64,000 bases of DNA from Candidatus Omnitrophota bacterium (GTDB taxonomy: Bacteria > Omnitrophota > Omnitrophia > Omnitrophales > JACROU01). The stretch is from assembly GCA_029261035.1 (NCBI GenBank), contig JAJDCD010000004.1:68765-132764 (forward strand). Direction: 5' to 3'. Positions 10,202-62,230 of the stretch are shown in pieces. The translations under genes and the position numbers were made by a program. The notes beneath the pieces were generated by a model. The model was not told the origin of the DNA, searched no databases, and saw only the letters and a list, made by a program, of their open reading frames with translations. The stretch's first letter is position 1. Each line of letters begins with the position of its first letter.

Positions 10202-10229
10202 TTAGATTTCCAAACTATTTTGATTAGTT

Positions 10230-11521: not shown

Positions 11522-11685
11522 ATCCAGTGTTCAAAAGGTTAAGGAATGTAAAACTTAAAACAAGAATTTAGACCTAAGATAACAGTACAGTTAACCAGTA
11601 AATTGCGGCTATTTTAAACAAAAAACCCTTAACCCAAAGTGCTTTTTATTAAAATAAATCTAGCTTTTAAGAGAAGTATAAAATA

Positions 11686-36764: not shown

Positions 36765-36780
36765 AGGATCCTGCTTTGGG

Positions 36781-38741: not shown

Positions 38742-38781
38742 AAAGGTTTTAATTTAATCCTCTTGTAAGCCTTGTTGGTAT

Positions 38782-39861: not shown

Positions 39862-40480
39862 CGCTTCCCCACGGTTTATACAAATTATGATTAACATCAA
39901 AACTATCTAAAATTTTACCCACAACAAAATCGATCAAATCATTAATATTTTTTGGTTTATGATAAAACCCTGGATTTGCTGGCAACACGGTAACGCCTAA
40001 TCTAGATAGTTTTAACATATTTTCTAAATGAATAGCACTAAAAGGAGTTTCTCTAGGAACAATCAAGAGTTTTCTACCTTCTTTAAGAGTCACATCGGCA
40101 GAACGAGAAATAAGATTGGATGAAATTCCGTTAGCAACTTCTGCCAACGTATTCATAGATGTTGGGCAAATAATCATCCCCCGTGTCTTAAAGGTCCCAC
40201 TGGCACTTTTTGCACTAACATCTCGATAACGGACCAGCTCTATTCTTTCTGCTATTTCTTTCGAAAATAATGATTCTAAAAATTCTGGAGTTTCCTGTGG
40301 TGGGAGTTCTAAATCCATTTCTTTCTCAAATACAAGTCGCGCATGAGGTGACATCATAAATATAACAGGCTCGCTTTGTTCTGCCAAAACGCGAACCAAA
40401 CGCAACCCGTACTGCAACCCACTCGCTCCTGTTAACGCAACAATAATAGGATCTTTTTTCACTCTCAACTCCCTCTTCAT
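39815..40480 (-). CDS. ubiX: Flavin prenyltransferase UbiX (prenylated-FMN synthase)
   Basis: 221 aa. Flavoprotein motif IIVALTGASG, UbiX/Pad1 family. Partners the adjacent UbiD-family gene. Confidence 0.85.
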   Translation of the reverse strand: MKRELRVKKDPIIVALTGASGLQYGLRLVRVLAEQSEPVIFMMSPHARLVFEKEMDLELPPQETPEFLESLFSKEIAERIELVRYRDVSAKSASGTFKTRGMIICPTSMNTLAEVANGISSNLISRSADVTLKEGRKLLIVPRETPFSAIHLENMLKLSRLGVTVLPANPGFYHKPKNINDLIDFVVGKILDSFDVNHNLYKPWGSDEEFVEELQTQKNYR

Positions 40481-40492
40481 AGAAGGTTTATA

Positions 40493-41350
40493 TTAAAATA
40501 TTAAATCCAAAAACGTACTGACTAATAAGATTAAACTAAAACATACATTAGGAATAAAAAATATTTTTGGGATAAATGACAGGTTATGCCCTCTCACCTG
40601 AAATTGCTGCTGAAATATTAAAATACCCGCAACAACAAAACCCACCCAATAATATACACCTAAATGATTCATTGAGCCTAAAACAAAAAGGCTAATCAGA
40701 GTAATTCCTTGAAACAAGCTGGATACTCTTAGACTGATCGTTTTCCCAAAACGAGAAGGAAGAGAAAAAAGCCCTTCCCTACGATCAAATCCTTCATCCT
40801 GCAAAGAGTAAATTATATCAAATCCTGCAACCCAAAATAAGACTGCTATAACGAGTGGCACAGGATACCAAGAAAAGCTCCCCTCTGACGCTATCCATCC
40901 TCCCATAGGAGAAATAGCCAAAATAGACCCTAAATAGAGATGTGTCCCCCACGTGAAACGCTTGAAAAGTGGGTAGGTACAGACCATAAACAAAGGAATG
41001 AAGGACAGCAGCAAACAGAGCTTATTTAATGCAAATACAGAGTAAAAATAAAACCCACAGCAAGAAATTAAACAGCAGAGTAAAAACTGCTTAGATATTA
41101 AACCCTGCGACAAAGGCCATATGGAAGTTCTTGGATTCTTTTGATCATAGCGAATATCTAATAAACGGTTCATGATCATTCCAACAGTTCTTAAACTAAC
41201 CATGGCCACCGTAACCCAAATAAATATGTGCAGCCTTGGCCAGCCCCCTTCCGCTAGTACCAAACCTAAGTAGGCAAAAGGAAGAGCAAATAACGTATGC
41301 TCAAACTTAATTGTTTCTAAAAAAAGTTTTAGCTGGTTCATTTGAATCAA
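40493..41350 (-). CDS. UbiA-family polyprenyltransferase (MqnP-like, menaquinone branch)
   Basis: 285 aa polytopic membrane protein with UbiA-type Asp-rich regions (DIRYD..., DxxxD-like FDIIYSLQDEGFD). Confidence 0.7.
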   Translation of the reverse strand: MIQMNQLKLFLETIKFEHTLFALPFAYLGLVLAEGGWPRLHIFIWVTVAMVSLRTVGMIMNRLLDIRYDQKNPRTSIWPLSQGLISKQFLLCCLISCCGFYFYSVFALNKLCLLLSFIPLFMVCTYPLFKRFTWGTHLYLGSILAISPMGGWIASEGSFSWYPVPLVIAVLFWVAGFDIIYSLQDEGFDRREGLFSLPSRFGKTISLRVSSLFQGITLISLFVLGSMNHLGVYYWVGFVVAGILIFQQQFQVRGHNLSFIPKIFFIPNVCFSLILLVSTFLDLIF

Positions 41351-42811
41351 CTACTTCAACTTTCCATTAAAACCATACTCACTCCAACGATCCGTAATCT
41401 TTTGCTGAATCTCTTCGGACATCTTCATTTCTTCAGGCCAATCTCTCAACATCCCTTCTTCAGGAAGTTTATGAGTGACATCTACCCCCATTTTCCCACC
41501 CCATAGATGTTGGGATGCAGAGTGATCGAGTTCATCCACTGGCCCTTCAGAAAAAACGATATCCCGCTTGGGATCCACATTCGCAAAAACCTTAAAAGCA
41601 ACTTCTTTCAGGTCATGAATATTAGTGTCATGATCAAAAACAAAAACAAATTTAGAAAACATGAGCTGTCCCAAACCCCAGATCGAATTCATCATTTTCT
41701 TAGCTTGATTCGGATAAGTCTTTTTAATGGATACTAAAATACAATTATGAAAAACCCCTTCCCAGGGTAAATGGATATCTACCACCTCAGGAAGAATCTT
41801 CCGAAGCATCGGAATAAAAATACGTTCTGTTGCCTTCCCTAGATAACAATCTTCCATAGGCGGCTTACCGACTATCGTTGTCATGTAAACAGGGTTTTTT
41901 CTATGAGTCATACATGTAATATGAAACGCTGGAAAATCCTTTGCTGGCGAGTAATATCCTGTATGGTCCCCAAAAGGCCCTTCTTCACGAAGGTCATCCA
42001 AATCCACATAACCTTCCAAGACAAACTCACTCTCTGCCGGAACTTCTAAATCTACGGTTTTACATTTAACGAGCTCTAAAGGTTTTTTTCTCAGAAAACC
42101 AGCAAACATAAACTCGTCGATATCTTTGGGAAGAGGTGCTGTTGCCGAATATACGGTAATAGGATCTGCTCCTATAGCCACCGCCACAGGCATTTGTTTA
42201 CTCTTCGCATCCTTTAAATTTCTAAAATGCTCTGCTCCATCTTTATGAATCTGCCAATGCATCCCCGTTGTTTTATTATCAAACACCTGCATACGATACA
42301 TGCCGACATTTCTATTTCCAGAAATAGGATCTTTAGAAATTACCAAAGGAAGTGTAATGAATTTACCTGCATCCTTAGGCCAACATTGAATCACAGGTAA
42401 TAGGTCTAACATAGGCCCCTCTTTAATGACAACCTCTTGACAAGGAGCTGAAGAAACAATTTTTGGAGTCGCTTTGGAAAGTTCAATAGCTTTAGGTAAA
42501 AGCCTCAATTTGTCCATCAAGGTTTCAGGAGTTTTAACTTGAGTAAAATCCTCTAAACGATCGGAGATTTCTTCATAAGCCTCAACACCTAAGGCCCCTA
42601 GCATCCGATTATGAGAAGCGAAAGTGTTTATAAGTAAAGGAAAAGAACTCCCTTTAACCTTTTCGAAATAAAGAGCGGGACCATCCTTCTTAACCACACG
42701 ATCCGCAATTTCAGTGACTTCTAAAATAGGGTCTACTTCTGCGGCAACGGTATGCAATTCGCCTAGCTTTTTAATGTGTTCAATATAATCACGCAGATTT
42801 TGAAATGCCAT
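41351..42811 (-). CDS. UbiD-family prFMN-dependent decarboxylase (MqnL-like)
   Basis: 486 aa. UbiD family conservation. Adjacent to ubiX and the UbiA-family gene. Confidence 0.8.
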   Translation of the reverse strand: MAFQNLRDYIEHIKKLGELHTVAAEVDPILEVTEIADRVVKKDGPALYFEKVKGSSFPLLINTFASHNRMLGALGVEAYEEISDRLEDFTQVKTPETLMDKLRLLPKAIELSKATPKIVSSAPCQEVVIKEGPMLDLLPVIQCWPKDAGKFITLPLVISKDPISGNRNVGMYRMQVFDNKTTGMHWQIHKDGAEHFRNLKDAKSKQMPVAVAIGADPITVYSATAPLPKDIDEFMFAGFLRKKPLELVKCKTVDLEVPAESEFVLEGYVDLDDLREEGPFGDHTGYYSPAKDFPAFHITCMTHRKNPVYMTTIVGKPPMEDCYLGKATERIFIPMLRKILPEVVDIHLPWEGVFHNCILVSIKKTYPNQAKKMMNSIWGLGQLMFSKFVFVFDHDTNIHDLKEVAFKVFANVDPKRDIVFSEGPVDELDHSASQHLWGGKMGVDVTHKLPEEGMLRDWPEEMKMSEEIQQKITDRWSEYGFNGKLK

Positions 42812-44904: not shown

Positions 44905-45798
44905 TCATCCTCTAGGGTGAAATTGGGTGTGAATTCCTTTGAGACGGTCTTTGGAAACATGCGTATATATTTGAGTTGTGCTGATATCTGCGTGCCCCAA
45001 GAGTTCTTGAACAATTCTAAGATCTGCCCCACCTTCAAGCAAATGTGTGGCAAATGAATGGCGAAATGTATGTGGGGTTATTCTCTTCTTAAGATGCGCT
45101 TCCTTCGTGTACTTTTTAATAATTTTCCAAAACGATTGTCGGGTTAGCTTTTTTCCCTGACGATTCAGAAACAACTCAGATGAAGGAGACTTAACCTTAC
45201 TTCGGATATGTTTAATATAACTTTGAATAACCTCATTCGCTATTCGACCTAACGGGATCATTCTCTCCTTCCCCCCTTTACCCATACACTTCAAAATTGA
45301 AGCTTCAAAATTAAGATCCGCTAATTTTAAATTAACAATCTCTGATACACGCATCCCTGTAGCATAAAACAGCTCTAGAATAGCTCTGTCACGCACTTTC
45401 TTACGAGAACCACCCGAAGTAGCTTTAATCATCTTTTCAACCTCGACAAAGGATAAAAAGTCCGGTAGCTTTTTCCATGTTTTCGGAGATTCCAAAGTGG
45501 AAGTAATGTCTTTTTTTAAATAACGCTCTCGAACTAGAAAACGATGAAAAATCTTTACAGACACAAGGTGTCTCGCTATAGATGTCGTAGCTAAACCTTT
45601 ATTCTTTAGCTCCATTAAAAAAGCATGAATTTTTTGAGGGTTTACTTTTTCCAATTCGACTAATTTACTTTTTCTTAAAAAAGTCACATAATCCCGGAGA
45701 TCTCTTTGATAAGCCATTAAACTATTTTTAGCCAATAACTTCTCAACAGAAAGATATTCCATAAAAAGTTGTATATAAGAATCCAACCGATCAGCCAT
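44905..45798 (-). CDS. xerD: Tyrosine recombinase XerD/XerC family
   Basis: 297 aa. RHRY catalytic residues (HTFRHSFATHLL...LGHADISTTQIYTHV). 8 bp downstream of ligA. Confidence 0.8.
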   Translation of the reverse strand: MADRLDSYIQLFMEYLSVEKLLAKNSLMAYQRDLRDYVTFLRKSKLVELEKVNPQKIHAFLMELKNKGLATTSIARHLVSVKIFHRFLVRERYLKKDITSTLESPKTWKKLPDFLSFVEVEKMIKATSGGSRKKVRDRAILELFYATGMRVSEIVNLKLADLNFEASILKCMGKGGKERMIPLGRIANEVIQSYIKHIRSKVKSPSSELFLNRQGKKLTRQSFWKIIKKYTKEAHLKKRITPHTFRHSFATHLLEGGADLRIVQELLGHADISTTQIYTHVSKDRLKGIHTQFHPRG

Positions 45799-50593: not shown

Positions 50594-51028
50594 TCAATGA
50601 AATTCCATCCTATCACCCACTATGATTCCATTTGTCTTAAACCAGCCTTGATTTACTTCTAAGGCATAACGCACATCTTCTGCAGATTTATGACGATCCA
50701 AAGACAAAGCTTCCATATCTTCAATTTGAGTAATAATCCCATCTTCATCTATAAAAGCAATACTTAATGGAATTAACGTATTCTTCATCCAAAACGAAAC
50801 TTTTCTTTCCGTTATAAAATCAAAAAGCATTCCTCGGTTCGGAGCAAGTTCTTTTCTATTTTGCAAACCCAAACTGCGCTCTTCTAAAGATCTTGCTATC
50901 TCAACTTCTAGACGAGTATCATTAATCGTAATTGTTTGAATCTCAAGATCAGACCGATTGTTTTGACTAAATGCGTAAAGAGGGTTTAAAGAAAGATTTA
51001 AAAATAGAATTAAAAAAAAGATTCTCAT
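50594..51028 (-). CDS. DUF192 (COG1430) family secreted protein
   Basis: 144 aa. Signal peptide. DUF192 hallmarks (GLQNRKEL, GMLFDF, FWMKNTLIPLSIAFID). Confidence 0.7.
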   Translation of the reverse strand: MRIFFLILFLNLSLNPLYAFSQNNRSDLEIQTITINDTRLEVEIARSLEERSLGLQNRKELAPNRGMLFDFITERKVSFWMKNTLIPLSIAFIDEDGIITQIEDMEALSLDRHKSAEDVRYALEVNQGWFKTNGIIVGDRMEFH

Positions 51029-52755
51029 GCCGCTTCTGTCTCTAAAGTCATATCTGTCGTTTCAGGACGATAGCCCATATAAAGCAATGCTTGCTCAACC
51101 ACATTTTTAAAAACAGGCGCAGAAACAGTCCCTCCGTAATATTTGGGTCCAGGGTCATCCAAAACTACCATCATACTAATCATAGGGTCTTCAACAGGTG
51201 CAAATCCAATAAAGGAGGATATAAAATCAGAATGAGAATATCCCTTTCCATTCTCTAAAACTTTTTGTGCGGTTCCTGTCTTTCCTCCAACAGAAATACC
51301 TTCTATTTGCGCTCGTTTTCCAGTTCCTTCCTCCACAACACGTTTCAAAATATTCCGCATTTGAGCTGCAACTTCCGGACGAATAACTTCACCCTTCCAC
51401 TCCGGTTTATTCTTAAAAATCTCAACACCTTTTTCATCCACTATTTTGGAAAGCAAACGAGGAGAAACTAAAGTACCACCATTAGCGATAACATTTAGAG
51501 CGCTCAAACATTGAAGTGCTGTGGAGGTTACTTCATGACCCATCGGAATTGCTGTCATTGAAGTTTTAGACCATTTACTTGGGGGACGAATAATCCCATT
51601 AACCTCTCCAGGAAAATCCACTCCTGATTTTTCACCAAAACCATACTTCCTAATATATCGATATAAAGAATCAGGGCCTAATTCTTTCGCAATTTTATGA
51701 GTTCCAATGTTACTGGACTTGGTTAAAACCGTTGAGAGATCCAAGACCCCATAACCATGCACATCATGAAGAACATGTCCTCCCACTCGATAACTTCCCT
51801 GCTCACAATCAAATTCGTCCAAGATATTTACAGCACCTTCATTCAGCGCGGATGAAACGGTTACTATTTTAAATACAGACCCTGGCTCAAAAGTATCTGT
51901 AACAATTCTATTGCGCCGACTATCTAAAAGAGAATCTTTGAAATTATTAGGATCATAATTAGGCCATGAAGCCATTGCTAATATAGATCCATCCTTAGGA
52001 TTCATCGCTATGGCCATTCCACCTTTTGCATTCCATTTTTCACAAGCAGCTTCCAATTCCCTTTGTGCTAAATACTGAATATACTGATCAATCGTCAATA
52101 CCAAGTTATATCCATTTACAGCTGGAATGAGCTTTTGCTCCATCGAAACGATTTCACGCCCCATGGCATCTCTCTTTGTATACTTCGCCCCTTTTTTACC
52201 TTTTAAATAAGAATCAAAATGCAGCTCCAACCCTTCCAAACCATTATTATCAATACCACAAAACCCTATAACATTTCCCAGAAGGCTCTCATTAGGATAA
52301 ACGCGCTGATACTCATCTACAATTCCCAAATTAGGATTCTTTAAAGCTTTAAAAACATCCGACTCTTCTTTAGATCCTCGTCGCTTTAACCATACAAACA
52401 TTTTATCTTTAGCTAATCTTTTTCTGATAAAGGATGCCTCTACAGAAAGCATCTGGGATAAAATTGGGATCAATTTTTCTTTTTCTTCTGGAAGCATCAA
52501 ACGGGGAGCCGCATAAAAAGATGGCACCTGTATCGAAGAGGCCAACTCTTTTAAATTCTTGTCATAAATCAACCCTCTTTTGGGTTCAATTTCTATGACC
52601 AAATTATGTTGCCGTTTAGCAATATCCGTAAGTTCATCTTTTCGGAAATAAGCGAGTACAATTAATTGGAAAATAATAAGAGAGAAAAGAATAAATAAAA
52701 TTGCAGCAACGAAACGGTGTCTAGATAAAGATAAGTCGGTATCAGTAAATGCCAT
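51025..52755 (-). CDS. ftsI: Penicillin-binding protein 3-like transpeptidase (FtsI)
   Basis: 576 aa. N-terminal TM, PBP dimer domain, SVFK / SSN / KTGTA motifs. Follows ftsL in the dcw context. Confidence 0.85.
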   Translation of the reverse strand: MAFTDTDLSLSRHRFVAAILFILFSLIIFQLIVLAYFRKDELTDIAKRQHNLVIEIEPKRGLIYDKNLKELASSIQVPSFYAAPRLMLPEEKEKLIPILSQMLSVEASFIRKRLAKDKMFVWLKRRGSKEESDVFKALKNPNLGIVDEYQRVYPNESLLGNVIGFCGIDNNGLEGLELHFDSYLKGKKGAKYTKRDAMGREIVSMEQKLIPAVNGYNLVLTIDQYIQYLAQRELEAACEKWNAKGGMAIAMNPKDGSILAMASWPNYDPNNFKDSLLDSRRNRIVTDTFEPGSVFKIVTVSSALNEGAVNILDEFDCEQGSYRVGGHVLHDVHGYGVLDLSTVLTKSSNIGTHKIAKELGPDSLYRYIRKYGFGEKSGVDFPGEVNGIIRPPSKWSKTSMTAIPMGHEVTSTALQCLSALNVIANGGTLVSPRLLSKIVDEKGVEIFKNKPEWKGEVIRPEVAAQMRNILKRVVEEGTGKRAQIEGISVGGKTGTAQKVLENGKGYSHSDFISSFIGFAPVEDPMISMMVVLDDPGPKYYGGTVSAPVFKNVVEQALLYMGYRPETTDMTLETEAA

Positions 52756-52776
52756 GAATAGTGACCATCATCCTTA

Positions 52777-53136
52777 TTATTTAGTGGTTTTGGCTTGAGC
52801 TTCTTTAATCCAGTTCAGCCACCCTCCGTAAGATTCTATTGAAGAAGGAGAAACTATATTACCGGAAGATAAGAGTGGAGCATCTATTTTAACAATCCGT
52901 ATTTCTCTAGGTAATTGAAAATCAACATTAGCCGACTTCATCATTTCCTCTAGACGTCCTGGAGATTTCAAAAAAGCCACTTTGAATTTTAACTGTTTTT
53001 GCTCTTCTGAAAATTGTGAATATAGTTTTTCTTTTTTATCTATTTCATAAGATAATTTAACTAAATTCACTTTTTGAAATACATACCCCAAAAGCAAACT
53101 AGTAATGAATAGGATCGCAAAAAAAGCTCTTATCAT
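52777..53136 (-). CDS. ftsL: Cell division protein FtsL-like
   Basis: 119 aa bitopic protein (N-terminal TM plus coiled coil) between rsmH and ftsI. Confidence 0.6.
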   Translation of the reverse strand: MIRAFFAILFITSLLLGYVFQKVNLVKLSYEIDKKEKLYSQFSEEQKQLKFKVAFLKSPGRLEEMMKSANVDFQLPREIRIVKIDAPLLSSGNIVSPSSIESYGGWLNWIKEAQAKTTK

Positions 53137-53178
53137 TCACTCTCCATAGTGTCTATGTTAATTAAAATCCAATTTATT

Positions 53179-54063
53179 TTATTCTGAAAGAACTGGTTTT
53201 TCAGCTACTCTTAATTTAGCGCTTCGAGACTTAGAATTACTTAAAACCTCTTCTCGAGAAGGCTTAATCACTTTTTTGTTTATAATCTTAATCTCACCCA
53301 CACGATGCTTTTCTTTAAACATTCTCTTAACAATCCGATCTTCTAAAGAATGAAATGTCAGCACAGCGATTCGTCCATGAGGCTTCAAGAGTTGAATCGC
53401 TTTTGGGAGCGCTTCCTCAACAGCACCCAATTCATCATTAACTACTATTCTTAATGCTTGAAATACTTTCGTCGCGGGATGAATACGTCCCCGTCTTCCA
53501 AATTTTTTTTCAATGAGTTGACTCAATTCAAGGCAAGTACTAATTCGTTTTTTATGTCTCTCTTCCACGATAACCTTAGCAATACGTCTCGATCCACGCT
53601 CTTCACCATATTGCCAGAAAATATTAGCAAGGTCTTCCTCCGGTGTATCATTTATAAGATCGGCTGCTGTGAGAGGAGACTTAAGATCCATCCTCATATC
53701 CAAAGGACTATCCCACTGAAAACTAAACCCTCTAGTTTCACTTAAAATCTGATCTGAAGAGATTCCTAAATCAAAAAGAATGGCATCTATACTATCTATT
53801 TTAAGCTCTTTTAGCACATGATCTATCTGTCTAAAATTTGCTTCTATTAAATCGTAGTGTCCATCGAACTCTTTTAGGTTGAGCTTGGTTCTATCTATGG
53901 CTTCTCTATCTTGATCGATCCCAATCAAACGACCTTGAGGTGTAATCTTGCGAAGAATTTCTTTTGCATGCCCCCCACCTCCTAATGTCGCATCACAAAC
54001 AACATTTCCAGGCTTAAGACAAAGATGTTCTAGTATTTCTTCTGTTAAGATAGGTACATGCAA
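53179..54063 (-). CDS. rsmH: 16S rRNA (cytosine1402-N4)-methyltransferase
   Basis: 294 aa. MraW motifs (DATLGGGGH, FDLGISS). Confidence 0.9.
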   Translation of the reverse strand: MHVPILTEEILEHLCLKPGNVVCDATLGGGGHAKEILRKITPQGRLIGIDQDREAIDRTKLNLKEFDGHYDLIEANFRQIDHVLKELKIDSIDAILFDLGISSDQILSETRGFSFQWDSPLDMRMDLKSPLTAADLINDTPEEDLANIFWQYGEERGSRRIAKVIVEERHKKRISTCLELSQLIEKKFGRRGRIHPATKVFQALRIVVNDELGAVEEALPKAIQLLKPHGRIAVLTFHSLEDRIVKRMFKEKHRVGEIKIINKKVIKPSREEVLSNSKSRSAKLRVAEKPVLSE

Positions 54064-54082
54064 TAAAAGCCTCTTTTAATTT

Positions 54083-54427
54083 TTAGAAGCGTTTGAAGCT
54101 CTTAAGAGCGTCTTCACGGGATGTGAAGGTTTCGAAAAGTGATGCCACGCCCATACGATCCATAACACGAGAAACTTCAGGTCTTAATTGACAAAGCTTA
54201 ATATCCCCTTTTTTCTCTCTCATACGGATAAGCTTTTCAACAAGAATTCCGATACCAGCAACATCCATTTTCTTGGCTGATTTCAAATCAACAATAATCT
54301 TAAAATGTTTTTTATTCATTAAACGATTTACTTTGTTTTTTAGATTCACTACTTTGGCGGCTTGAAGATTGTCACACTCAAGAATATCTACATTCCTTAC
54401 TTTCCCTAGCCTTTTTGAAAATTGCAC
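54083..54427 (-). CDS. STAS-domain anti-sigma factor antagonist (SpoIIAA-like)
   Basis: 114 aa. STAS fold pattern with candidate phosphorylatable region (DLKSAKKMDVAGIGILV). Confidence 0.7.
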   Translation of the reverse strand: MQFSKRLGKVRNVDILECDNLQAAKVVNLKNKVNRLMNKKHFKIIVDLKSAKKMDVAGIGILVEKLIRMREKKGDIKLCQLRPEVSRVMDRMGVASLFETFTSREDALKSFKRF

Positions 54428-54451
54428 CCTTCACCTCCCCTATTTTTTATA

Positions 54452-54892
54452 TTATTCTTTATCGATAAGTTTTTCAGCCAATGTTTCAAATGATTCTATA
54501 GAATCATCAAAAAAACTTTTCCACTTCTCTTTAGACCAAATTTCAACACGGTCAGAAACTCCAACAACCATAACTTCGTCTTTAATAAAAGCGTAATCAA
54601 ACAAGTACTGTGGAATTAAAATACGGCCTTGCGCATCACATACAACTTCGCTAGCACCGGAAAAGTAAAGTCTGTTAAACTTTCGAGCTTCACCTTTCGT
54701 AAAGGAAAGATCTTTGAATTTTTTTTCTTGGAGCTTCCACTCTTCTTCGGTAAACAAAAATAAACACTTATCCAACCCACGAGTAATATACAGTTTGTCT
54801 GTATAGCGATCTTTGTAGATCTCTCGGAATTTAGAAGGAATGATCAACCTCCCCTTCTTATCAATATTGTGCTCAAATTCACCATAAAACAT
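54452..54892 (-). CDS. mraZ: Transcriptional regulator MraZ
   Basis: MFYGEFEHNIDKKGRLIIPSKFRE... and a second DxxGR repeat (DAQGRILIPQYL). Start at the internal Met; the ORF to 55012 is an upstream extension. Confidence 0.8.
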   Translation of the reverse strand: MFYGEFEHNIDKKGRLIIPSKFREIYKDRYTDKLYITRGLDKCLFLFTEEEWKLQEKKFKDLSFTKGEARKFNRLYFSGASEVVCDAQGRILIPQYLFDYAFIKDEVMVVGVSDRVEIWSKEKWKSFFDDSIESFETLAEKLIDKE

Positions 54893-54897
54893 ATTTA

Positions 54898-54921
54898 CCA
54901 CTTTCCTCCACTTTTCACCAC
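54898..54921 (-). promoter_or_regulatory. Candidate MraZ operator: three GTGG direct repeats at 10-bp periodicity in the mraZ leader
   Basis: Minus strand AAAGTGGtgaAAAGTGGaggAAAGTGGtaaatATG (plus-strand CCAC at 54898, 54908, 54918). In E. coli, MraZ binds a series of TGGGN direct repeats upstream of mraZ. Confidence 0.45.
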
Positions 54922-54937
54922 TTTGTTGACTTGATGT

Positions 54938-54966
54938 AGTATATTTACTTAAGGGTATGACGTCAA
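54938..54966 (-). promoter_or_regulatory. Candidate sigma70-type promoter of the mraZ operon
   Basis: Minus strand TTGACG (54961-54966), 17-nt spacer, TATACT (54938-54943), just upstream of the GTGG repeats. Confidence 0.4.
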
Positions 54967-55190
54967 CCAGTTTTTTATATGGGATTGAACTTTTATTGCG
55001 CCAATTTGGCACATTCTAATTTGATAGAAGATGGCCGTAATTTAGGACAAAAAAAAGGGTGGAGATCACACACACCCTACTGCTTACCAGCAGCTGGTTG
55101 TAATCACCACCCTAATTTCTAAATTTAATTAAGTGAAATATCGGCTAAAACAGGAACCTTAAGATCTACAAAACTATAGGAGAGATCGAA

Positions 55191-55901
55191 TTAATTCTCG
55201 AATAAAATACGGGTGCAGTTTTCACAGCAAACAACATCCCTTTGGAGTTTAACTTCATTAATTATTTGAGGTCTTAATTGCACATGACAGGCTCCACAAA
55301 TGTCTCCTGTAATACTTGCCATAGCAACACCTTCTCTTTTCTTTAAAATCTTGTCGTACAATTCTTTCACTTCTTTTTCAATAGGCTCTAAATTTTTTAA
55401 GCGTTCTTTCTGAAGAGATTCTATCTTAACCTTTGCCTCAGAAGCTTCTTTTTCCAACCCTTGCTTTTGTTGCTTTAATTTTGCTTCTTCTTCATCTAAC
55501 TTTTTCTTTTCAATATTTTTCTCTTGGTTGAGTTCTTCAACTTTATCCCACTCACCTAACAGGGCTTCTTCAACCATAGCTTTATCTGCTTTAATCGAAG
55601 ATATTTGCTCTAGCATTGCAGCGTATTCTTTGTTGGTCTTAAGTTGAACCAGTTGCCCATCCAACTTAGTCATTTCATCATCCTTCTTACCTAAATCTAA
55701 TTCTTCTTCTTTTATCTTTAACTTTAATTGGATCACCTTCTCATCCAACTCATTAAACGTCTGCTTCTTTAACTCAAATTCATTATCTAACTCTTCCAAC
55801 CTCTCAGGTAAACCCTCCAAAAAAACTTCTAAATCATAAATTTCTTTATCCAAAACCTGAACCGATTTAAGTATGTCTATATCTTTATTTACCTCTGTCA
55901 T
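55191..55901 (-). CDS. Zinc-ribbon coiled-coil protein (COG1579/DUF164 family)
   Basis: 236 aa. Long coiled coil and C-terminal C4 zinc ribbon (CGACHVQL...CCENCTRILF). Confidence 0.7.
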   Translation of the reverse strand: MTEVNKDIDILKSVQVLDKEIYDLEVFLEGLPERLEELDNEFELKKQTFNELDEKVIQLKLKIKEEELDLGKKDDEMTKLDGQLVQLKTNKEYAAMLEQISSIKADKAMVEEALLGEWDKVEELNQEKNIEKKKLDEEEAKLKQQKQGLEKEASEAKVKIESLQKERLKNLEPIEKEVKELYDKILKKREGVAMASITGDICGACHVQLRPQIINEVKLQRDVVCCENCTRILFEN

Positions 55902-56039
55902 TCTCAGTATCCTCTTTTATCACTAGAATTAAATATAGGGCACAAAAGCACAATAAGCCTATACAAGGTGACTACCCTTGAATCACCAAATAGCCTCATA
56001 TTATAGTGGCATACTTGAGTACGTCAACATCGAATACCG

Positions 56040-56705
56040 TTAAAGGTTCATCTGATGTAGATCAGATTCTAGCTCCATAAAACTGGCTAATTCTGACTCT
56101 GTGAGACGGCCCATTTTATAAAAAAATGAGGTCAGGGAGATATCGCTGGCTTTGATGCTACTCTCGTCAGCACTTACATTCTCATGCTGTTGAGATTCTC
56201 TTTCTACTGGCTGGTTTAAAGGGGCTACTTCTTCATATTCTTGCGTATTTTGATTGTGAATATCTTGCTCCAAAGCAGAGTCTAAATTTTTCTTTAAGCA
56301 TTCTTCCACTAAGACTCTATCTTCTTTCTGAGATAATGTAAGCTCAAAAATCTCAATCTTATCTTCAATCGATGAACATGTTTGAATAAGACCTGCAGAA
56401 ATGCGCTCACCCACAATAACCAATCGGGTTTCGTTGGACTGTTCCAATCCAATCACTAAATGTTGCCACTTTACTTTGAATTCTAAAAGAGGAAGTAATA
56501 CATCAAGTTCATAGGCAGGTTTCCACAAACACACAAAAATTAAACTTCCCTCTTTTTGTAAGATCCATGTAATTTCTTCTTTTGATAACCATGAAGGAAT
56601 ATCTTGAAATGTGTAATTTGGATAAATCTCTTCGATAACAGATTTGGCGATAGGTTTCAGTTGTTCAACATCCGTTCCTAAAGATTTTACAAATTGAATT
56701 TTCAT
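56040..56705 (-). CDS. Hypothetical protein
   Basis: 221 aa. No recognisable motifs. Acidic C-terminal tail. Last gene of the apparent ParA-containing operon. Confidence 0.4.
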   Translation of the reverse strand: MKIQFVKSLGTDVEQLKPIAKSVIEEIYPNYTFQDIPSWLSKEEITWILQKEGSLIFVCLWKPAYELDVLLPLLEFKVKWQHLVIGLEQSNETRLVIVGERISAGLIQTCSSIEDKIEIFELTLSQKEDRVLVEECLKKNLDSALEQDIHNQNTQEYEEVAPLNQPVERESQQHENVSADESSIKASDISLTSFFYKMGRLTESELASFMELESDLHQMNL

Positions 56706-56714
56706 AATGAATAC

Positions 56715-57587
56715 CTATACCTTAACAAATGTAGATTCTAATTTATTCAAAAATCGAATTTGGTCTAATGAACCTACTTTAATTTTTTGCTTTGCAACTT
56801 GAGACTTAAATAAAACATCCCAATTTAACTTTGAAATGGCATTAGAAGAAATTCCAATTTTTTCCATCTTTGTCGACACAGCTCCAATACACCGAAGCGA
56901 AACAACTAAGTATTGAGAAACAATCTCTGAAAATCTAGAAAACACCTTCTCAACATCATCATCTGTCATTACAGCATCAAAGATGATAAACACTTCCAAT
57001 TCTTGATTCACATACTGACAGGATTTAATAATTTTATAAGCACTTTCTAGCTCATAGGCTAAAGGCTGAACAACCAGAACTAATTTATCCAAAACCTTTA
57101 TAAGTTGTTCAATGCCCATATTTTCATTTCGAAAAGGGTCTAAAGCAATCAAAGAGCCTGGCATAGCCATAGAATGCATTTGCTTTTTTTGATTATCGAT
57201 TTCATGGCTGCCTTCCGGATAAGTTTCTTCCGAAATATCAAGCCAATAAAAATTATTGATTAACTTTTGTTTTTTTTCATTCCGATACACCCAGTCATAT
57301 TCTGAATTTTTAAATAAGCTTTCCACCATCTCAATGTCTCGAGATAAGGGTTGGCTAGTAACAAAATAGGTCTGCTCATAATATTGAGATAAAAAAGAAG
57401 AAAAAAGAAGATTGAAAATTAGAGTTTCTTCTTCTCGAAAAGGAGAAACGAAACTAACTAATTGCGACTTATTTAATGATTTAGTAGGCTCTTTTTTTTG
57501 AGACACTTCTCCGCTCGAAGAGGCTTTCGAAAGAAAAACATCAACAACTTGTTTTAGTTCATTTTTAGATTTCTGGGGTTCGCTCAT
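56715..57587 (-). CDS. Hypothetical protein, possibly a degenerate ParA/MinD-like fold lacking Walker A
   Basis: 290 aa. No P-loop, but a Walker-B-like hydrophobic-Asp segment (SLIALDPF...LDKLVLVVQP). 23-bp overlap with the upstream ParA gene suggests translational coupling. Confidence 0.35.
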   Translation of the reverse strand: MSEPQKSKNELKQVVDVFLSKASSSGEVSQKKEPTKSLNKSQLVSFVSPFREEETLIFNLLFSSFLSQYYEQTYFVTSQPLSRDIEMVESLFKNSEYDWVYRNEKKQKLINNFYWLDISEETYPEGSHEIDNQKKQMHSMAMPGSLIALDPFRNENMGIEQLIKVLDKLVLVVQPLAYELESAYKIIKSCQYVNQELEVFIIFDAVMTDDDVEKVFSRFSEIVSQYLVVSLRCIGAVSTKMEKIGISSNAISKLNWDVLFKSQVAKQKIKVGSLDQIRFLNKLESTFVKV

Positions 57588-58878
57588 TAATCGTCTCTTG
57601 TATCGATTTGTTAGTCGTGTCTATAACAGAATCAATTCCACCGTAGACATTAGATTCTGTTAAATTGTTGTTAGGATCAACCATCCATTCTCCGTCGACA
57701 ATAAATTTGTAACGATACTTTCCTGGTGTTAAGGGAATATACTTTCTCCACATACCCTTTTCCCCATCTGAGCACTCCATTGCTTCATTAACCCAATTAT
57801 TAAAATCACCTGCAATTTGCACCATCTTAGCATTCTTTTCTAAATACCCGAACTGAACTCCATTTTCTTCTAAAACAGGGTACATCTCACTTTCATTCTG
57901 GATATGACTCATTTGCTCCAGAAAAGACTCTTCCTCTGATTTTGCTGGATCTTCAGGACTACCCTCCTTAAAAAAAGCCTTCTCAAATTCTTCAGATAGT
58001 TTTTCTTTGCTCATTCCATTAGTACTATTTAACGGCTCTTCTTCCGATTCTAAGGTTGAATCTAAATGAGCATTAGAATCATTAACTTCATCCTTCTGTT
58101 CTTTTAAGAAAATTTCTGATTTTTTTTCAATCAGCTCGGAGGCCAGGCTTACATAATCATGAAAACCCTTACTCTTTCGATCAAAATCACAAATAGACAT
58201 CCCTGCAGTAATGGCCTCTTTCAATTTAATATTTTGATGAATCACTGTATTAAAAAGCTCCTGACCACACTCTGCTTGTAACTGAGCCAATATGCTTTTA
58301 TTAAAGTTAGAATTTGAATTAAACATAGTGAGCAAAACATGAACCTTAGCTGAATGCTTTAAGGTTTCTTCAATTAATTGCACTGTCTCTTTTATCTTTC
58401 TAAAGCCTTGAACCGAAAAATCAGAAGGCTCGACAGGAACAATCAATTCTTGAGAAGCTCGAAGGGCATTAAAGGTAAGTAAACCAAGATTCGGAGGGCA
58501 ATCAATAATGACATAATCGTATTGATCTCCTACAGACAAAACTTTTTCCATCAACTTTTCTTCTCTACCATAAACTCCAGATAACTGTTGTTCAATGGCA
58601 CTCAAAATAATCTGCGATGGAACTAAATGAAAGTTAGAATTAATGTAAAGAACAATTTCTTCTAAAGAGGTTGCCACCTGCGCAGGGCTTAAAACATCAT
58701 ATAAACTTTTTTGAATTTTATCCGTATCGTAACCCAAACCCATTGTGGAATGACCTTGTGGGTCCAAGTCAATCAGAAGTGTTCTTTTTCCTAAAAAGGA
58801 TAAACTAGAAGCAAGATTAATTGACGTTGTAGTCTTTCCACAGCCACCCTTTTGATTCGCAATCGAAATCACTCTCAT
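57565..58878 (-). CDS. ParA/Soj-type ATPase fused to a C-terminal CBM48 (AMPK-beta glycogen-binding-like) domain
   Basis: N-terminus has the deviant Walker A KGGCGKTTT, DLDPQG, and Walker B VIIDCPP. After an acidic linker, the C-terminal ~80 aa (IAGDFNNW...GKYRYKFIVDGEWMVDPNN) match the AMPK-beta GBD/CBM48 signature. Confidence 0.7.
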   Translation of the reverse strand: MRVISIANQKGGCGKTTTSINLASSLSFLGKRTLLIDLDPQGHSTMGLGYDTDKIQKSLYDVLSPAQVATSLEEIVLYINSNFHLVPSQIILSAIEQQLSGVYGREEKLMEKVLSVGDQYDYVIIDCPPNLGLLTFNALRASQELIVPVEPSDFSVQGFRKIKETVQLIEETLKHSAKVHVLLTMFNSNSNFNKSILAQLQAECGQELFNTVIHQNIKLKEAITAGMSICDFDRKSKGFHDYVSLASELIEKKSEIFLKEQKDEVNDSNAHLDSTLESEEEPLNSTNGMSKEKLSEEFEKAFFKEGSPEDPAKSEEESFLEQMSHIQNESEMYPVLEENGVQFGYLEKNAKMVQIAGDFNNWVNEAMECSDGEKGMWRKYIPLTPGKYRYKFIVDGEWMVDPNNNLTESNVYGGIDSVIDTTNKSIQETINERTPEI

Positions 58879-59008: not shown

Positions 59009-60271
59009 CTAAGATTGTATTTTGTCTTGAGGTTTATTTTGACTCTTAATTTCTTTTTTGATTCTGGAATCGTAGTATGCAAACATATTTTTTTTAAACG
59101 CGTTCAAAAAAGCATCTACAACTTTAGGATGGAATTGCTTACCTTTGTTTGTTTCTAGTTCATTAATTGCAAAATCCAGCGGAAAACCTTTTTTATAACA
59201 TCGAGACGATATCATGGCATGAAAAGCATCTACAACAGAGATAATTGAAGACTCAATAGGAATTTCATCTCCTTTAATCCCCCTAGGATAACCCGATCCA
59301 TCATAGTTTTCATGATGACAACGAATAATATCCGACACTTCTTTAAAGTCTGTTAAGGGTTCTAAAATCTTAACTCCTTTATCCACATGTTCTTTCATAA
59401 TGCTCCATTCTTCCTCATTTAGACTCCCCTCTTTCTTCAAAACCGAGTCTGGTATTCCAATCTTACCCACATCATGTAATCTCAAAGAAGCGGACAGAAC
59501 AACTCGTTTTTTTCCAGATAAGTCTAATCCCAATTCCTCCGCTGTCATAATACCTAACTTTTCCACAGCTTCTAAATGCCCAAATGTGGAAGAATCTTTC
59601 ATTCGTACTTCCTGTGCTAAAGACAACATAATTTCATAATAGGTCTGTTGTTCTTTATCTCTCAAAACTTTGTTCTCTTTTAGTTTTTCTTCTAACTCTG
59701 CATTACGTTTAACCAACTCCGTTTGTGTTTCAGCATTTTTAATAGTCATAGCAGAATCATTGGCTAGAGTTTCAAAAAACTGAATTTCTTCCTCCAAAAA
59801 ATCTTCCCCTGTTTTTTTATTCCCCAAAATAAGAATCCCCAAAAGCTCTTCATGATAAAAACAAGGAATACACAACGATGCATTCAAAGAGATCATCAAC
59901 TCTTTAATTTTTTCAATTTCTTTTAAATCTTGTGGACTTAATTCAGAATGCTTAACGCGATTAAACGATTTTAATTTCTTCAAACAAAAATAACCTTCCA
60001 ATATCTGCAACTTATCTTTCTTTTCAAGAAACCATAGAATGAGAGGGTGATCTAAATCAATCCGCACCAAATGAATAGGAATTCTATCCTTACCCTTAGA
60101 ATCAATAAAAGAGTATCTCTGCTTCGAAGATTCATACACAAGCATGCTCGCTTGAGTCAAATTTGATTCGCGTGCTATAAAGCGAACCACCATCCTCAAA
60201 AGATTATTAGGGTTTTTAAATCGAACCATACTTCTTGCAGCATTTTTTAACGCTTCTGAATAATTAATCAT
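59009..60271 (-). CDS. GAF-domain HD-GYP phosphodiesterase (c-di-GMP)
   Basis: 420 aa. HD motif (LRLHDVGKIGIP) and HHENYDGSGYP (HD-GYP signature). N-terminal GAF-like region. Confidence 0.8.
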   Translation of the reverse strand: MINYSEALKNAARSMVRFKNPNNLLRMVVRFIARESNLTQASMLVYESSKQRYSFIDSKGKDRIPIHLVRIDLDHPLILWFLEKKDKLQILEGYFCLKKLKSFNRVKHSELSPQDLKEIEKIKELMISLNASLCIPCFYHEELLGILILGNKKTGEDFLEEEIQFFETLANDSAMTIKNAETQTELVKRNAELEEKLKENKVLRDKEQQTYYEIMLSLAQEVRMKDSSTFGHLEAVEKLGIMTAEELGLDLSGKKRVVLSASLRLHDVGKIGIPDSVLKKEGSLNEEEWSIMKEHVDKGVKILEPLTDFKEVSDIIRCHHENYDGSGYPRGIKGDEIPIESSIISVVDAFHAMISSRCYKKGFPLDFAINELETNKGKQFHPKVVDAFLNAFKKNMFAYYDSRIKKEIKSQNKPQDKIQS

Positions 60272-60300
60272 AACCTCTCAACACCTTTCCTTAAGTAAGC

Positions 60301-60666
60301 CTAAGCAATCGAAGCTAATTTCTGACGCACATCATTTTCTAAATACTCTAAACTCAACGGTTTAGTAATGTAGTTATCCGCACCCATACGAACAGCTTCT
60401 TCAATTTTTTCTGTCGTTTCAATAGCCGTTACCATAATCACCTTAACCTTTGGGTACTTATCTTTAATTTCCTTCAATACCTGAAGACCATCAATCCCAG
60501 GCATTTTAATATCTAAAAGACACACATCCGGTTGAACTTGGGCTATTTTTTCAAGAGCATCAAAACCAGAACATGCCGTATCTACACTAAACTCTCTTTC
60601 TTCAAAAAAACATTTAAGGAAATCACAAATTTCCTCTTCATCATCCACAACTAGCAATTTAACCAT
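60301..60666 (-). CDS. Single-domain response regulator (CheY-like)
   Basis: 121 aa. LLVVDDEEEICDF..., DIKMPGIDG, KVIMVTA. Confidence 0.8.
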   Translation of the reverse strand: MVKLLVVDDEEEICDFLKCFFEEREFSVDTACSGFDALEKIAQVQPDVCLLDIKMPGIDGLQVLKEIKDKYPKVKVIMVTAIETTEKIEEAVRMGADNYITKPLSLEYLENDVRQKLASIA

Positions 60667-60682
60667 AATTACTCCCCTTTGT

Positions 60683-62230
60683 TTATTTACCTTGATCTAA
60701 CACAACCGATTCTAAATCATTACGAGAATCAGCCTCATCTTGAACCATCTCGTTTTCTACTTCTATCATCATTGGCAAACGAATACTCACACAAGTGCCA
60801 CGACTCGGGTCACTCTCGATGGAGATCCCCCCTTTATTTCTTTGAATAATCCTTTGAACGACAAATAACCCCAAACCTAAACTATTATGTTTGGTTGTAT
60901 AAAAGGCGTCAAAAACATTTGATATCACCTGATCCTCAATTCCACACCCCGTATCCTCAACCCTTATCTCAAGAATCCCTTCAGCGGCATCATGTTTCAA
61001 AATAACCGTAATTTCCCCTTCTTGCTCTACGGACTGAACCGCATTTAATATCAAGTTCAGAAAAACTTCTCTAAACTCATCCAAATGACCTTTGAATTTA
61101 GGCAAATCACTGTCGATCTCTTTTTGAATATTTATCTTTTCCAGAGAAGTCTGATAAGAAATTAACTCAAATGTATCGTCAATAATTGTTTCAAAAGGAA
61201 TTTGCTCTTCATGCTCAGGACTTGTTCTAGAAAATAAGAGTAATTTCCTCGTAATATCGGCTGCCCTAGTTGTTTGTTCAACGATCCCTTTTAAATCCTC
61301 TTCAGATTTTTGAGTTAGAAAATTTTTTCCCTTATTCAAAAGTAACATTTGAGCTTTTCCAGAAATAATCGTTAATGGATTATGAATTTCGTGAGCAATT
61401 CCTGTCGCCAATTGTTCCATCGCTGAAAATTTATTAGAATGCATAATATGAGACTGAAATTCTTTAAGTTCCTCATATTGGCTTCTGATGTGTTCGTATT
61501 TAATCGCATTCTGTAAACTCGTATTTAATTTCATAGCAAAATCGTTGAAGAGTCTTAACTCGTTATGAAAGAAAGGTGTATGGGATGGTTTAGAACTTAC
61601 CGAAATAAATGCTTTTAATTCCCCCTTATCCAGGATGGGAATGATTAGCTGCGCTCTAAGAAGCTCAAAATCCGAATTCAACTGAGATGCCTCAGGCCAA
61701 TTCATGGACTTCAATGTATTATCTCTTAAAATTGGAAATCTACTATTTTCTAACTCCTCCACAAGCTTAGAATTCGTATCTATCTTAATTTTCTTTGAAT
61801 CATTAAGGTTAAACCCGACAAGAGAGCGTGGAACAAATTTTCGAAGCCCCTCATCTTTAACAAGAAACGCAACATGCTTAACATTGAAAAGGTCATAAAA
61901 CGTATTAACTAATAAATTAGAAAATTCCCTTAAATCCAAACTCGCATTCAGATCTTCGATAGAGTTTATCAAAATACTCTGAAAACCAACCTTCTCCTTA
62001 AAAATAAACTCACGAAAAACAAAATTTAAAAAGTGATCTAAAGGTTTATAAGCAATTATGCAAACAATGATGATAAGTCCGACGTCAGATGCGAACTGTA
62101 AGGAAGGTTTTACAGGAAGAAAGGTAAAAACAATATTTTTAAGTTGTAAAATGGCTATCGATAAAAAGAATAAGCTGATAAGCTTCATCCCTTTTTTTAA
62201 AGCAATTTTACGTTTCCTTAGATATAGCAT
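60683..62230 (-). CDS. Sensor histidine kinase (membrane, GAF-like sensor)
   Basis: 515 aa. N-terminal TMs, HisKA H-box (IAHEIHNPLTII), and HATPase_c N/G boxes (LNAVQS, DTGCGI, GLGLFV). Confidence 0.8.
   Translation of the reverse strand: MLYLRKRKIALKKGMKLISLFFLSIAILQLKNIVFTFLPVKPSLQFASDVGLIIIVCIIAYKPLDHFLNFVFREFIFKEKVGFQSILINSIEDLNASLDLREFSNLLVNTFYDLFNVKHVAFLVKDEGLRKFVPRSLVGFNLNDSKKIKIDTNSKLVEELENSRFPILRDNTLKSMNWPEASQLNSDFELLRAQLIIPILDKGELKAFISVSSKPSHTPFFHNELRLFNDFAMKLNTSLQNAIKYEHIRSQYEELKEFQSHIMHSNKFSAMEQLATGIAHEIHNPLTIISGKAQMLLLNKGKNFLTQKSEEDLKGIVEQTTRAADITRKLLLFSRTSPEHEEQIPFETIIDDTFELISYQTSLEKINIQKEIDSDLPKFKGHLDEFREVFLNLILNAVQSVEQEGEITVILKHDAAEGILEIRVEDTGCGIEDQVISNVFDAFYTTKHNSLGLGLFVVQRIIQRNKGGISIESDPSRGTCVSIRLPMMIEVENEMVQDEADSRNDLESVVLDQGK

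Follow-up and report, generated by a model that had tools for sequence, protein, structure and literature searches.

A 64-kb stretch of an Omnitrophota genome (contig JAJDCD010000004.1, positions 68,765 to 132,764; hereafter the window) encodes on its minus strand a protein of 437 amino acids (aa), in which a complete ParA/Soj-type ATPase is joined through a flexible linker to a carbohydrate-binding module of family 48 (CBM48) of the glycogen-binding AMPK-beta type. This fusion, referred to below as ParA-CBM, is found in at least 8 bacterial phyla and has strongly conserved catalytic and glycogen-site residues. The gene is followed by a gene for a 290-aa protein with a MinD-like fold and a ParB-like N-terminal peptide, and by a gene for a third protein of 221 aa. 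The system may tether or position glycogen.

Distribution and annotation of the fusion

That ATPase and CBM48 are fused had been claimed in a sequence-only reading of the window, and the fusion is genuine: both domain sets lie in one open reading frame (ORF) in 120 of the 120 best homologues from metagenome-scale protein clusters. A genome scan covering one genome per species gave at least 591 confirmed relatives, and the best 80 of these all match the query from residue 1 to approximately residue 420. An assembly or frameshift artefact is ruled out by the 120 homologues together with the 80 full-span genome loci. The groups among the best 80 are Omnitrophota, several Planctomycetota orders, Rokubacteria, Margulisiibacteriota, Gemmatimonadales, Desulfobacterota and Thermodesulfobacteriota, Myxococcota and Ca. 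Auribacter; one member was also found in Zixibacteria. Family counts given below refer to 85 sequences and their loci (L numbers). The scan patterns that selected the loci contained the Cys13 and His43 motifs, so the invariance of these two residues at those loci follows in part from the selection itself and is not counted as evidence; the residues of the CBM played no part in the selection.

Concerning annotation, the sequence-only reading had considered that the architecture might turn out to be both common and already annotated. The first part applies, given the number of phyla; the second does not, as the names of those homologues that have one do not go beyond "AAA family ATPase" or "chromosome partitioning protein". 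Full-text searches and overviews of ParA/MinD systems contained no functional description of a ParA-CBM48 protein, which agrees with the earlier remark that no described system of this kind was known. The parts are known (ParA, CBM48 and the MinD-like fold); their combination is without a description in the searched literature, and the family is widespread and functionally unstudied.

Conserved domains of the 437-aa protein

Based on Pfam, the N-terminal part of the protein matches AAA_31 (residues 1-176, E=5.5e-54) and CbiA (E=2e-21), with ParA-type models extending to about residue 250; CBP_BcsQ also matches, with 50.2 bits. The motifs present are a deviant Walker A, KGGCGKT(TT), the Walker A' aspartates D37/D39, the Walker B D126 and a pocket segment, DCPPNLGLLT. 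K10, K15, T16, D37, D39 and D126 are invariant (85/85 family sequences). The deviant Walker A with its signature lysine, the Walker A' Asp and the Walker B Asp, which together place a protein among the ParA/MinD (SIMIBI) ATPases, are all found. The closest sequences in the PDB (phmmer) are Myxococcus ParA (8RAY, E=6.6e-48), Thermus Soj (5e-40) and then Helicobacter Soj, and the core is 35-37% identical to Soj/ParA. In the AlphaFold2 (AF2) model the per-residue confidence (pLDDT) exceeds 90 over the ATPase core (1-255), and Foldseek aligns this core with 9A6N, 8RAY, 6IUB and 2BEK (TM-score 0.93, root-mean-square deviation 1.3-1.7 A), which is the Soj/ParA fold. At the level of its residues, the 437-aa protein shows a complete Soj-like catalytic core.

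There is a difference at one DNA-binding position. The residue equivalent to Soj R189 is Arg in 80 of the 85 relatives; Asn (N189, codon 58312-58314) is found only in the window protein, and its closest relative (P0002) has Gln. The region of Soj R218 keeps Lys/Arg, with K218 and K220 present.

The linker that follows is acidic and of low complexity. Its first part prolongs the last ParA helix, and residues 277-329 have a pLDDT below 50. Across the family it varies from 13 to 156 aa (median 42) and is unalignable.

The C-terminal domain had earlier been called a CBM48, and it scores above the curated cutoff of two Pfam models: AMPK1_CBM (PF16561) at residues 348-424 (49.3 bits, cutoff 26.8) and CBM_48 (PF02922; 34.9 bits, cutoff 22.4), which together span residues 338-424. 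The call is borne out by phmmer against the PDB, where the CBMs of AMPK beta1 and beta2 are matched at about 2e-7 (1Z0N, AMPK beta1, E=2e-7). The predicted beta-sandwich (330-424) has a pLDDT of 90-97. The residues W100, K126, W133 and G147 of rat AMPK-beta1 align to W362, K391, W398 and G413 of the window protein. In the AMPK-beta1 CBM, W100G and K126Q abolish glycogen binding, while W133L and G147R weaken it (PMC6274970). Across the family, W362 and W398 are each present in 85/85 sequences and G413 in 84/85; position 391 is Arg or Lys in 78/85, and position 416, in the region of AMPK N150, is Asn or Asp in 84/85. This pattern is firm evidence, at the level of residues, that the CBM48 glycogen site is under selection across phyla, and glucan binding by the CBM48 of the 437-aa protein is a well-supported prediction. 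In the model a disordered linker carries the CBM as an independent module, an arrangement that would fit a tether.

The partner peptide

In many loci the gene directly after ParA-CBM begins with a short conserved peptide, while the protein bodies behind the peptide differ widely between phyla. The family motif is KLKRGLKDISPLF / LGRGLxDVSHLFLS. Rokubacteria and Gemmatimonadales have the form PLGRGLEDVSHLFLS, Tepidisphaerales and Phycisphaerae LSEISHLFLS, Desulfobacterota RLAKVSHLFLS and Phycisphaeraceae LDxLADLFLTG; RKLGRGLSDVSHIFLS, RLGRGLADVSHVFLS and KLGKGLEDISYLFLS are found at other loci, and LGRGLEDVSHLFLS is a further version of the motif. The strict seven-residue core of the motif occurs in 28 of the 5019 ORFs of the 85 loci, and 24 of these 28 lie N-terminally in the gene that directly follows ParA-CBM. 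A broader motif is found in the adjacent gene in 36 loci, compared with 38 ORFs carrying it in the whole set. In a second Omnitrophota context group the peptide gene lies directly upstream ('cluster 1'): all 23 of its 23 proteins start with "..IY(E/D)HLA(K/Q)(I/V)YL(D/G)" and continue with a Lys-rich stretch, one transmembrane (TM) helix and an extracytoplasmic domain. Altogether, a peptide-bearing gene adjoins ParA-CBM in at least 55 of the 85 loci.

The bodies behind the peptide include a MinD-like domain, a protein with a helix-turn-helix (HTH), a TM segment and RodZ_C, and a domain (about 150 aa) that is a homologue of the 221-aa protein of the window; in Planctomycetota they are proteins of 470-720 aa with the same degenerate MinD-like core. 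The RodZ-like partner points to a connection with the MreB/RodZ elongation machinery in Desulfobacterota.

The family of the 290-aa protein has the consensus start "M.e.kKLKRGLKDISPLF", in which R9, L11 and F18 each reach 90% conservation or more; a disordered and variable stretch comes next. In the AF2 model of the window protein this region is a low-confidence helix (8-22) and then disordered (23-41). The window peptide, KSKNELKQVVDVFLSKA, is a diverged copy of the motif: the central Arg-Gly is gone, and the flanking lysines and the hydrophobic pattern are kept. The lineages of the window and of the closest relative (P0002) both lack an R189-type Arg in the ATPase and the central Arg of the peptide; these two losses may be a coupled change.

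The N-terminal peptide of ParB docks at the L150-G151-L152 pocket beside Walker B, where it folds into a helix (PMC12462528). The equivalent LGL segment of DCPPNLGLLT is conserved in the ParA-CBM family. The ParB N-termini GLGRGLSALL of Caulobacter (GLGRGLSALLGE) and GLGKGINALF of B. subtilis Spo0J are very close to LGRGLxDVSHLFLS. Judged by its residue pattern, the partner peptide resembles the ParA-activating peptide of ParB, and we propose that it would dock on, and activate, its cognate ParA-CBM. The motif also provides a simple sequence handle for recognising cognate partner genes.

The 290-aa and 221-aa proteins

The 290-aa protein has no match in Pfam or NCBIfam, and Pfam also finds nothing in 56 members of its family. 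An exhaustive HMMER search gave 60 cluster representatives, all of about 260-290 aa. A word-indexed homologue search with the 290-aa and 221-aa proteins returned self matches only and missed the 290-aa relatives at 36-43% identity that HMMER found, so the negatives of the indexed search are untrustworthy for fast-evolving small proteins. The family profile matches FlhG (4RZ2, E=1.8e-7) and FleN (1.3e-5) in the PDB; the match starts at the Walker B strand and reaches the C-terminus. The AF2 model (pLDDT 82.5, predicted TM-score 0.82) is matched by Foldseek to FlhG, FleN, Borrelia PF-32, MinD, McdA and ParA, which identifies a MinD-type fold. An hhalign comparison of the 290-aa family with the ParA-CBM alignment aligned the same Walker-B region at a non-significant probability of 0.1.

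The site of the P-loop is occupied by the four residues PFRE, located between a strand (42-47) and a helix (52-69), where GKGGxGK[ST] would be expected in an ATPase. None of the 56 aligned family members has a Walker A at this site, and the Walker A' Asp is absent from the 290-aa protein. With the P-loop missing the protein is not classed as an ATPase, and canonical nucleotide binding is not expected from its sequence. No TM segment is present in the protein, and the hydrophobic moment of the C-terminal helix of the family (median 0.51) does not exceed that of interior controls (0.53); on these grounds a membrane association common to all partners is rejected for the window clade.

Members of this family lie directly downstream of ParA-CBM in 13 of the 85 loci (HMM). 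Three more distant partners pass the Pfam CbiA cutoff and keep Walker A-like segments: GERVKGKS (L073), GKGVRGKT (L080) and GDRTPGKS (L084). By its profile and predicted model, the 290-aa protein is a pseudo-ATPase of the MinD/FlhG type; in the series of partners, which starts with active-looking ATPases, it stands at the degenerate end. The sequence-only reading had described it as a degenerate ParA-like partner without a P-loop, a description that holds and can be refined to a MinD/FlhG fold preceded by a ParB-like peptide.

The 221-aa protein, which has no match in Pfam or NCBIfam, starts with a domain of about 147 aa; a variable acidic linker joins this domain to a conserved helix at the C-terminus (LTxxELxxFxELE). 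Homologues are found at the same position in L001-L004, L021 and L023. Iterative profile searches show the N-terminal domain in two further settings: in Rokubacteria and Gemmatimonadales it makes up everything behind the peptide in the LGRGL-peptide proteins, and in Myxococcota it is part of a neighbour protein. Since the domain is fused to the partner peptide elsewhere, the 221-aa gene belongs to the ParA-CBM system. The sole PDB profile match is NucS (2VLD, E=0.12), which is not significant; together with the motif pattern, it gives a hint that the domain might be a degenerate PD-(D/E)xK-like core.

Genomic neighbourhood across clades

In the window clade the gene order is ParA-CBM, 290-aa and 221-aa homologues, a Zn_ribbon_9/CT398-like gene, mraZ, a STAS-domain gene, rsmH, ftsL and ftsI. 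The order persists to a ParA identity of 39%, with different genes upstream, and synteny with the genes from the Zn ribbon to ftsI is found in 7 loci (L001-L004, L009, L071 and L085). The sequence-only reading had pointed out a histidine kinase, a response regulator and an HD-GYP protein immediately upstream. These genes are present and Pfam agrees with their identities; their conservation is limited to the closest relative, L001 (61% identical), as they are absent from L002-L004, and the conserved linkage is instead the one to mraZ-rsmH-ftsL-ftsI.

In a rough neighbour-joining tree the window clade stands apart from a larger Omnitrophota clade, whose neighbours are an alginate-export-type porin, a glycoside hydrolase of family 57 (GH57), a TM partner, a DUF4870 membrane protein and a Lys-rich 140-aa protein. 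In 14 loci of this sister clade a block has the order porin, GH57 (E=7.8e-63), 190-aa single-pass peptide protein, ParA-CBM48 and DUF4870. The best PDB matches of the GH57 protein are uncharacterised GH57 entries (9KYQ, 8ZYI). A link of ParA-CBM to an alpha-glucan enzyme is real in the sister clade. Also, most described metagenome-assembled genomes (MAGs) of Omnitrophota encode glycogen synthesis (PMC8542988).

Further genes recur near ParA-CBM48. A protein of about 140 aa lies 0.3 kb downstream in 20 loci (L034:7514-7936, L043:7412-7834, L049:4286-4705); its N-terminal half is Lys-rich and histone-H1-like, its conserved C-terminal domain contains "..ITHYFPHVxAAVIKL..IKGHTTD..", and Pfam gives no match. 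HD-GYP genes are found within a few kb in different clades (L043:8146-9771, L060:10750-12117, L082:7963-10166 and 59009-60271 of the window), and L082 also has a receiver-domain gene; there may be a recurrent, if weak, association with c-di-GMP signalling. About 9 kb downstream in L002, an Omnitrophota contig (20551-21500, running off the locus), lies a giant gene with a recorded product of 7,467 aa and with SNF2 helicase, methyltransferase and ABC1 domains.

Features of the window

The coordinates of all features are presented in Table 1. The three minus-strand ORFs and the 23-bp overlap given in the sequence-only reading match them: the ParA-CBM stop lies within the 290-aa gene (57565-57587), and the 221-aa ORF begins 10 bp past the 290-aa stop. 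The GC content is about 35-38% throughout the 64 kb and the skew is steady, so there is no sign of a genomic island in the window. The best site of a promoter scan (56027..56000, 11/12 matches) lies just upstream of the Zn-ribbon gene, with counts not above those of shuffled controls, and a terminator scan found none. A search for a second ParA/MinD gene within the window was negative. The upstream GAF and HD_5 protein carries the motif HHExxDGxGYP.

Table 1. Coordinates of the ParA-CBM module, its neighbours and selected features of related loci (window positions unless an L number is given).
Feature	Coordinates	Strand	Evidence or remarks
ParA-CBM48 fusion gene	57565..58878	minus	437-aa ORF; Pfam AAA_31/CbiA and AMPK1_CBM/CBM_48
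ParA/Soj-type ATPase domain, aa 1-255	58114..58878	minus	phmmer, AF2, Foldseek, conserved catalytic residues
Acidic low-complexity flexible linker, aa ~256-329	57892..58113	minus	AF2, alignment
AMPK-beta-type CBM48 / glycogen-binding beta-sandwich, aa 330-424	57607..57891	minus	PF16561, phmmer, AF2, conservation
Disordered 13-aa C-terminal tail including stop codon	57565-57606	minus	AF2 pLDDT <50 (425-437)
290-aa partner gene	56715..57587	minus	ORF; family of 60 cluster representatives
Candidate N-terminal partner peptide, aa 6-22 of 290-aa protein	57522..57572	minus	conservation, motif counts, AF2
MinD/FlhG-fold domain without P-loop, aa 42-290	56718..57464	minus	PDB profile, AF2, Foldseek
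221-aa third-component gene	56040..56705	minus	ORF
GAF-HisKA-HATPase histidine kinase, receiver-only response regulator and GAF-HD-GYP phosphodiesterase	59009..62230	minus	Pfam; upstream of ParA-CBM
Coiled-coil and C4 zinc-ribbon gene (Zn_ribbon_9, CT398-like)	55191..55901	minus	Pfam; downstream of module
Short division/cell-wall cluster: mraZ, STAS-domain gene, rsmH, ftsL-like, ftsI (penicillin-binding protein)	51025..55012	minus	ORFs; Pfam of syntenic loci; phmmer synteny
Walker A-like partners	L080:7089-7949, L073:3339-4277, L084:1174-2088	n/a	unclassified MAGs
RodZ-like partner	L053:1614-2969		Desulfobacterota; peptide, HTH_17/MerR-like HTH, TM at ~residue 233, RodZ_C E=4.6e-13
GH57 block (14 loci)	L013, L027, L034, L035, L039, L041, L042, L047, L049, L060, L061, L069, L074, L078; e.g. 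L035:3818-5377		

Concerning the division and cell-wall (dcw) cluster, the STAS gene (54083-54427) between mraZ and rsmH and the CT398-like gene before mraZ are also found in L001-L004, L009 and L085. Both are unusual dcw members, and the cluster ends after ftsI with no mur or ftsZ gene next to it. The mraZ ORF (54452-55012) has 186 aa from a GTG, about 37 aa more than the MraZ of relatives (146-151 aa); an internal ATG ('MFYGEFEH..') is the probable start. The remaining window is housekeeping (7324-12744, 36051-42811 and 44905-45798, among others), and includes mreB-mreC-PBP2-rodA, a XerC/D-type recombinase and a purine biosynthesis block at approximately 22.6-32.3 kb. A futalosine-type menaquinone set is also present: a MqnA-like VitK2_biosynth gene, two radical-SAM CofH/MqnC-like genes, UbiA, UbiD and UbiE.

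Comparison with known systems

The closest relatives of the ATPase belong to Soj/Spo0J (ParABS) systems. Beyond the identity of the core, the deviant Walker A and the Walker-B pocket are kept, and the N-terminal peptide of the partner is hydrophobic around a central basic residue, as in ParB. ParA-CBM differs in its additional C-terminal CBM48 and in the family-specific Cys13 and His43, found in place of Val and Asn of Soj, and its partner lacks the ParB fold, the HTH/CTPase and parS. The adjacent ParB gene and parS site by which ParABS is recognised are not found at the ParA-CBM locus.

In McdA-McdB, ParC-ParP and PomXYZ, as here, an orphan ParA-type ATPase stands beside a fast-evolving partner, which in those systems engages it via its N-terminus and in ParA-CBM would do so; PomXYZ also shares the two accessory proteins and a site beside division genes. 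The difference is that in McdA-McdB and PomXYZ the cargo is reached via an adaptor, whereas the ATPase of ParA-CBM itself bears a candidate cargo-binding domain. To our knowledge, every described ParA/MinD system binds its cargo through a separate adaptor and uses DNA or membrane as its matrix. PhaM of Ralstonia is a conceptual likeness, being one protein that links the polyhydroxybutyrate granule to the nucleoid for inheritance; PhaM is no ATPase, and its sequence is unrelated to that of ParA-CBM.

The CBM is of the same PF16561 type as those of AMPK beta and the plant proteins PTST and SEX4, with equivalents of W100, K126, W133 and G147 kept; these modules target proteins to glycogen or starch, or regulate them there. 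In the window protein the module is carried by a P-loop ATPase, and not by a kinase scaffold, a phosphatase or a coiled-coil protein, and it is bacterial and cytoplasmic. The 290-aa partner has its best profile and fold matches in FlhG, FleN and MinD, from which it differs in lacking the P-loop, the Walker A' Asp and any evidence of a membrane helix, and in having a ParB-like peptide.

Possible functions of the ParA-CBM system

The most economical reading, which we hold tentatively and at somewhat less than even confidence, is that of a glycogen-tethering or glycogen-positioning ParA system whose ATPase binds glycogen directly. As the sequence-only reading did, we infer a positioning of glycogen granules. 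ATP-bound ParA-CBM dimers would bind a matrix, which in most family members would be the nucleoid, and the two CBMs of each dimer would grip alpha-glucan (glycogen) particles with increased avidity. The N-terminal peptide of the partner would dock in the pocket beside Walker B, as that of ParB does, leading to ATP hydrolysis and release. Through repeated cycles, glycogen granules would be tethered, distributed or partitioned, and the scaffold presenting the peptide would be formed by the pseudo-MinD body together with the 221-aa protein. In the Omnitrophota clade of the window, the fixed position upstream of mraZ-ftsI makes it possible that the cycles are coordinated with cell division.

Several points weigh against glycogen tethering. 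Glycogen binding by the CBM of the window is a prediction from sequence, and the 64 kb hold no glycogen-metabolism gene (a search for glg genes in them was negative). The conserved neighbours in the window clade are division genes and not storage genes, and the GH57 linkage belongs to another clade. N189, at the DNA-binding position of Soj R189, is unique to the window protein among the 85, and the window peptide is without the central Arg-Gly; for these reasons nucleoid binding and activation are less certain for the window protein than for the family. The likeness of the peptide to ParB is a pattern comparison, and a phmmer search of PDB sequences with the 25-aa partner peptide returned only zinc-finger repeats, which are noise. 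Also, a ParA that itself holds the cargo is not directly covered by the classical diffusion-ratchet, in which the activator is on the cargo and ParA on the matrix.

The conserved division genes bear on the chief rival, which we regard as unlikely, if the strongest of the alternatives. Here the CBM48 would be a sensor of glycogen status (amount or branching): glycogen would sequester or release ParA, which together with the pseudo-MinD would act as a MipZ-, PomZ- or MinD-like regulator, in space or in time, of the divisome or elongasome. The synteny of the seven loci with Zn-ribbon-mraZ-STAS-rsmH-ftsL-ftsI would fit such a role, as would the RodZ-like partner of Desulfobacterota and a partner fold whose nearest matches, FlhG/FleN/MinD, act as regulators and not as cargo adaptors. 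The AMPK CBM is itself documented as a glycogen sensor (PMC2642990). The dcw linkage is, however, limited to one Omnitrophota clade, most loci being without division genes, and it may be mere conserved gene order of the lineage; no interaction domain of an FtsZ- or MinC-like type was found.

Somewhat less probable again is an ordinary orphan ParA whose cargo would be the 290-aa/221-aa complex or its ligand, with the CBM48-like domain binding a protein or another ligand and sharing no more than a resemblance with glycogen binders. Partner proteins usually define the cargo of ParA/MinD ATPases (PMC10241942), the partner set is dedicated and diverse, and the window is without glycogen genes. What this account leaves hard to explain without a glucan ligand is the invariance of W362 and W398 and the near-invariance of G413 and of the basic residue at position 391 across at least 8 phyla; the GH57 adjacency in the sister clade also counts against it.

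We consider improbable a BcsQ-like part of a machine for alpha-glucan synthesis or export, in which the ATPase would localise the complex at the membrane and the CBM would hold the nascent glucan. It draws on the CBP_BcsQ match and on the porin, single-pass peptide protein and DUF4870 membrane protein of the GH57-linked clade. The BcsQ score is far below the similarity to Soj/ParA, no glycosyltransferase or synthase is conserved beside the gene, and neither a TM segment nor an unusually amphipathic C-terminal helix is found in the partner of the window. A chromosome-segregation ParA (Soj) with an accessory domain is very improbable: the nearest solved structures and sequences are chromosomal Soj/ParA and some relatives carry the name of a chromosome partitioning protein, but no ParB-like gene was found within the 64-kb window or beside ParA-CBM in the 85 loci in a search with ParB query sequences, the partner itself is no ParB, the window protein lacks an R189-type Arg, and Planctomycetota, Myxococcota and Desulfobacterota have canonical ParABS as well.

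Implications for the family and for bacterial glycogen

A broader proposal, which goes beyond glycogen tethering and which we think quite unlikely as it stands, is that glycogen, beyond being cargo, serves a ParA/MinD machine as a third kind of working surface or as a metabolic input. The avidity of a CBM48 pair, which depends on dimerisation, would then stand in for the amphipathic helix by which MinD works on membranes, the ATP cycle would load the ATPase onto glycogen particles and unload it again, and interchangeable partners (pseudo-MinD, RodZ-like, single-pass membrane and PD-(D/E)xK-like) would couple the glycogen store to division or envelope growth in many uncultured phyla.

The ParA and CBM domains are both small and soluble, which makes the central claims testable in vitro, and the partner series, from active-looking MinD-like proteins to those without a P-loop, is natural material for studying how partners evolve. 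If glycogen tethering or positioning is correct, glycogen granules would join the actively organised structures of bacteria; if instead the CBM48 acts as a sensor, the family would directly connect the carbon reserves of a cell with its cycle.

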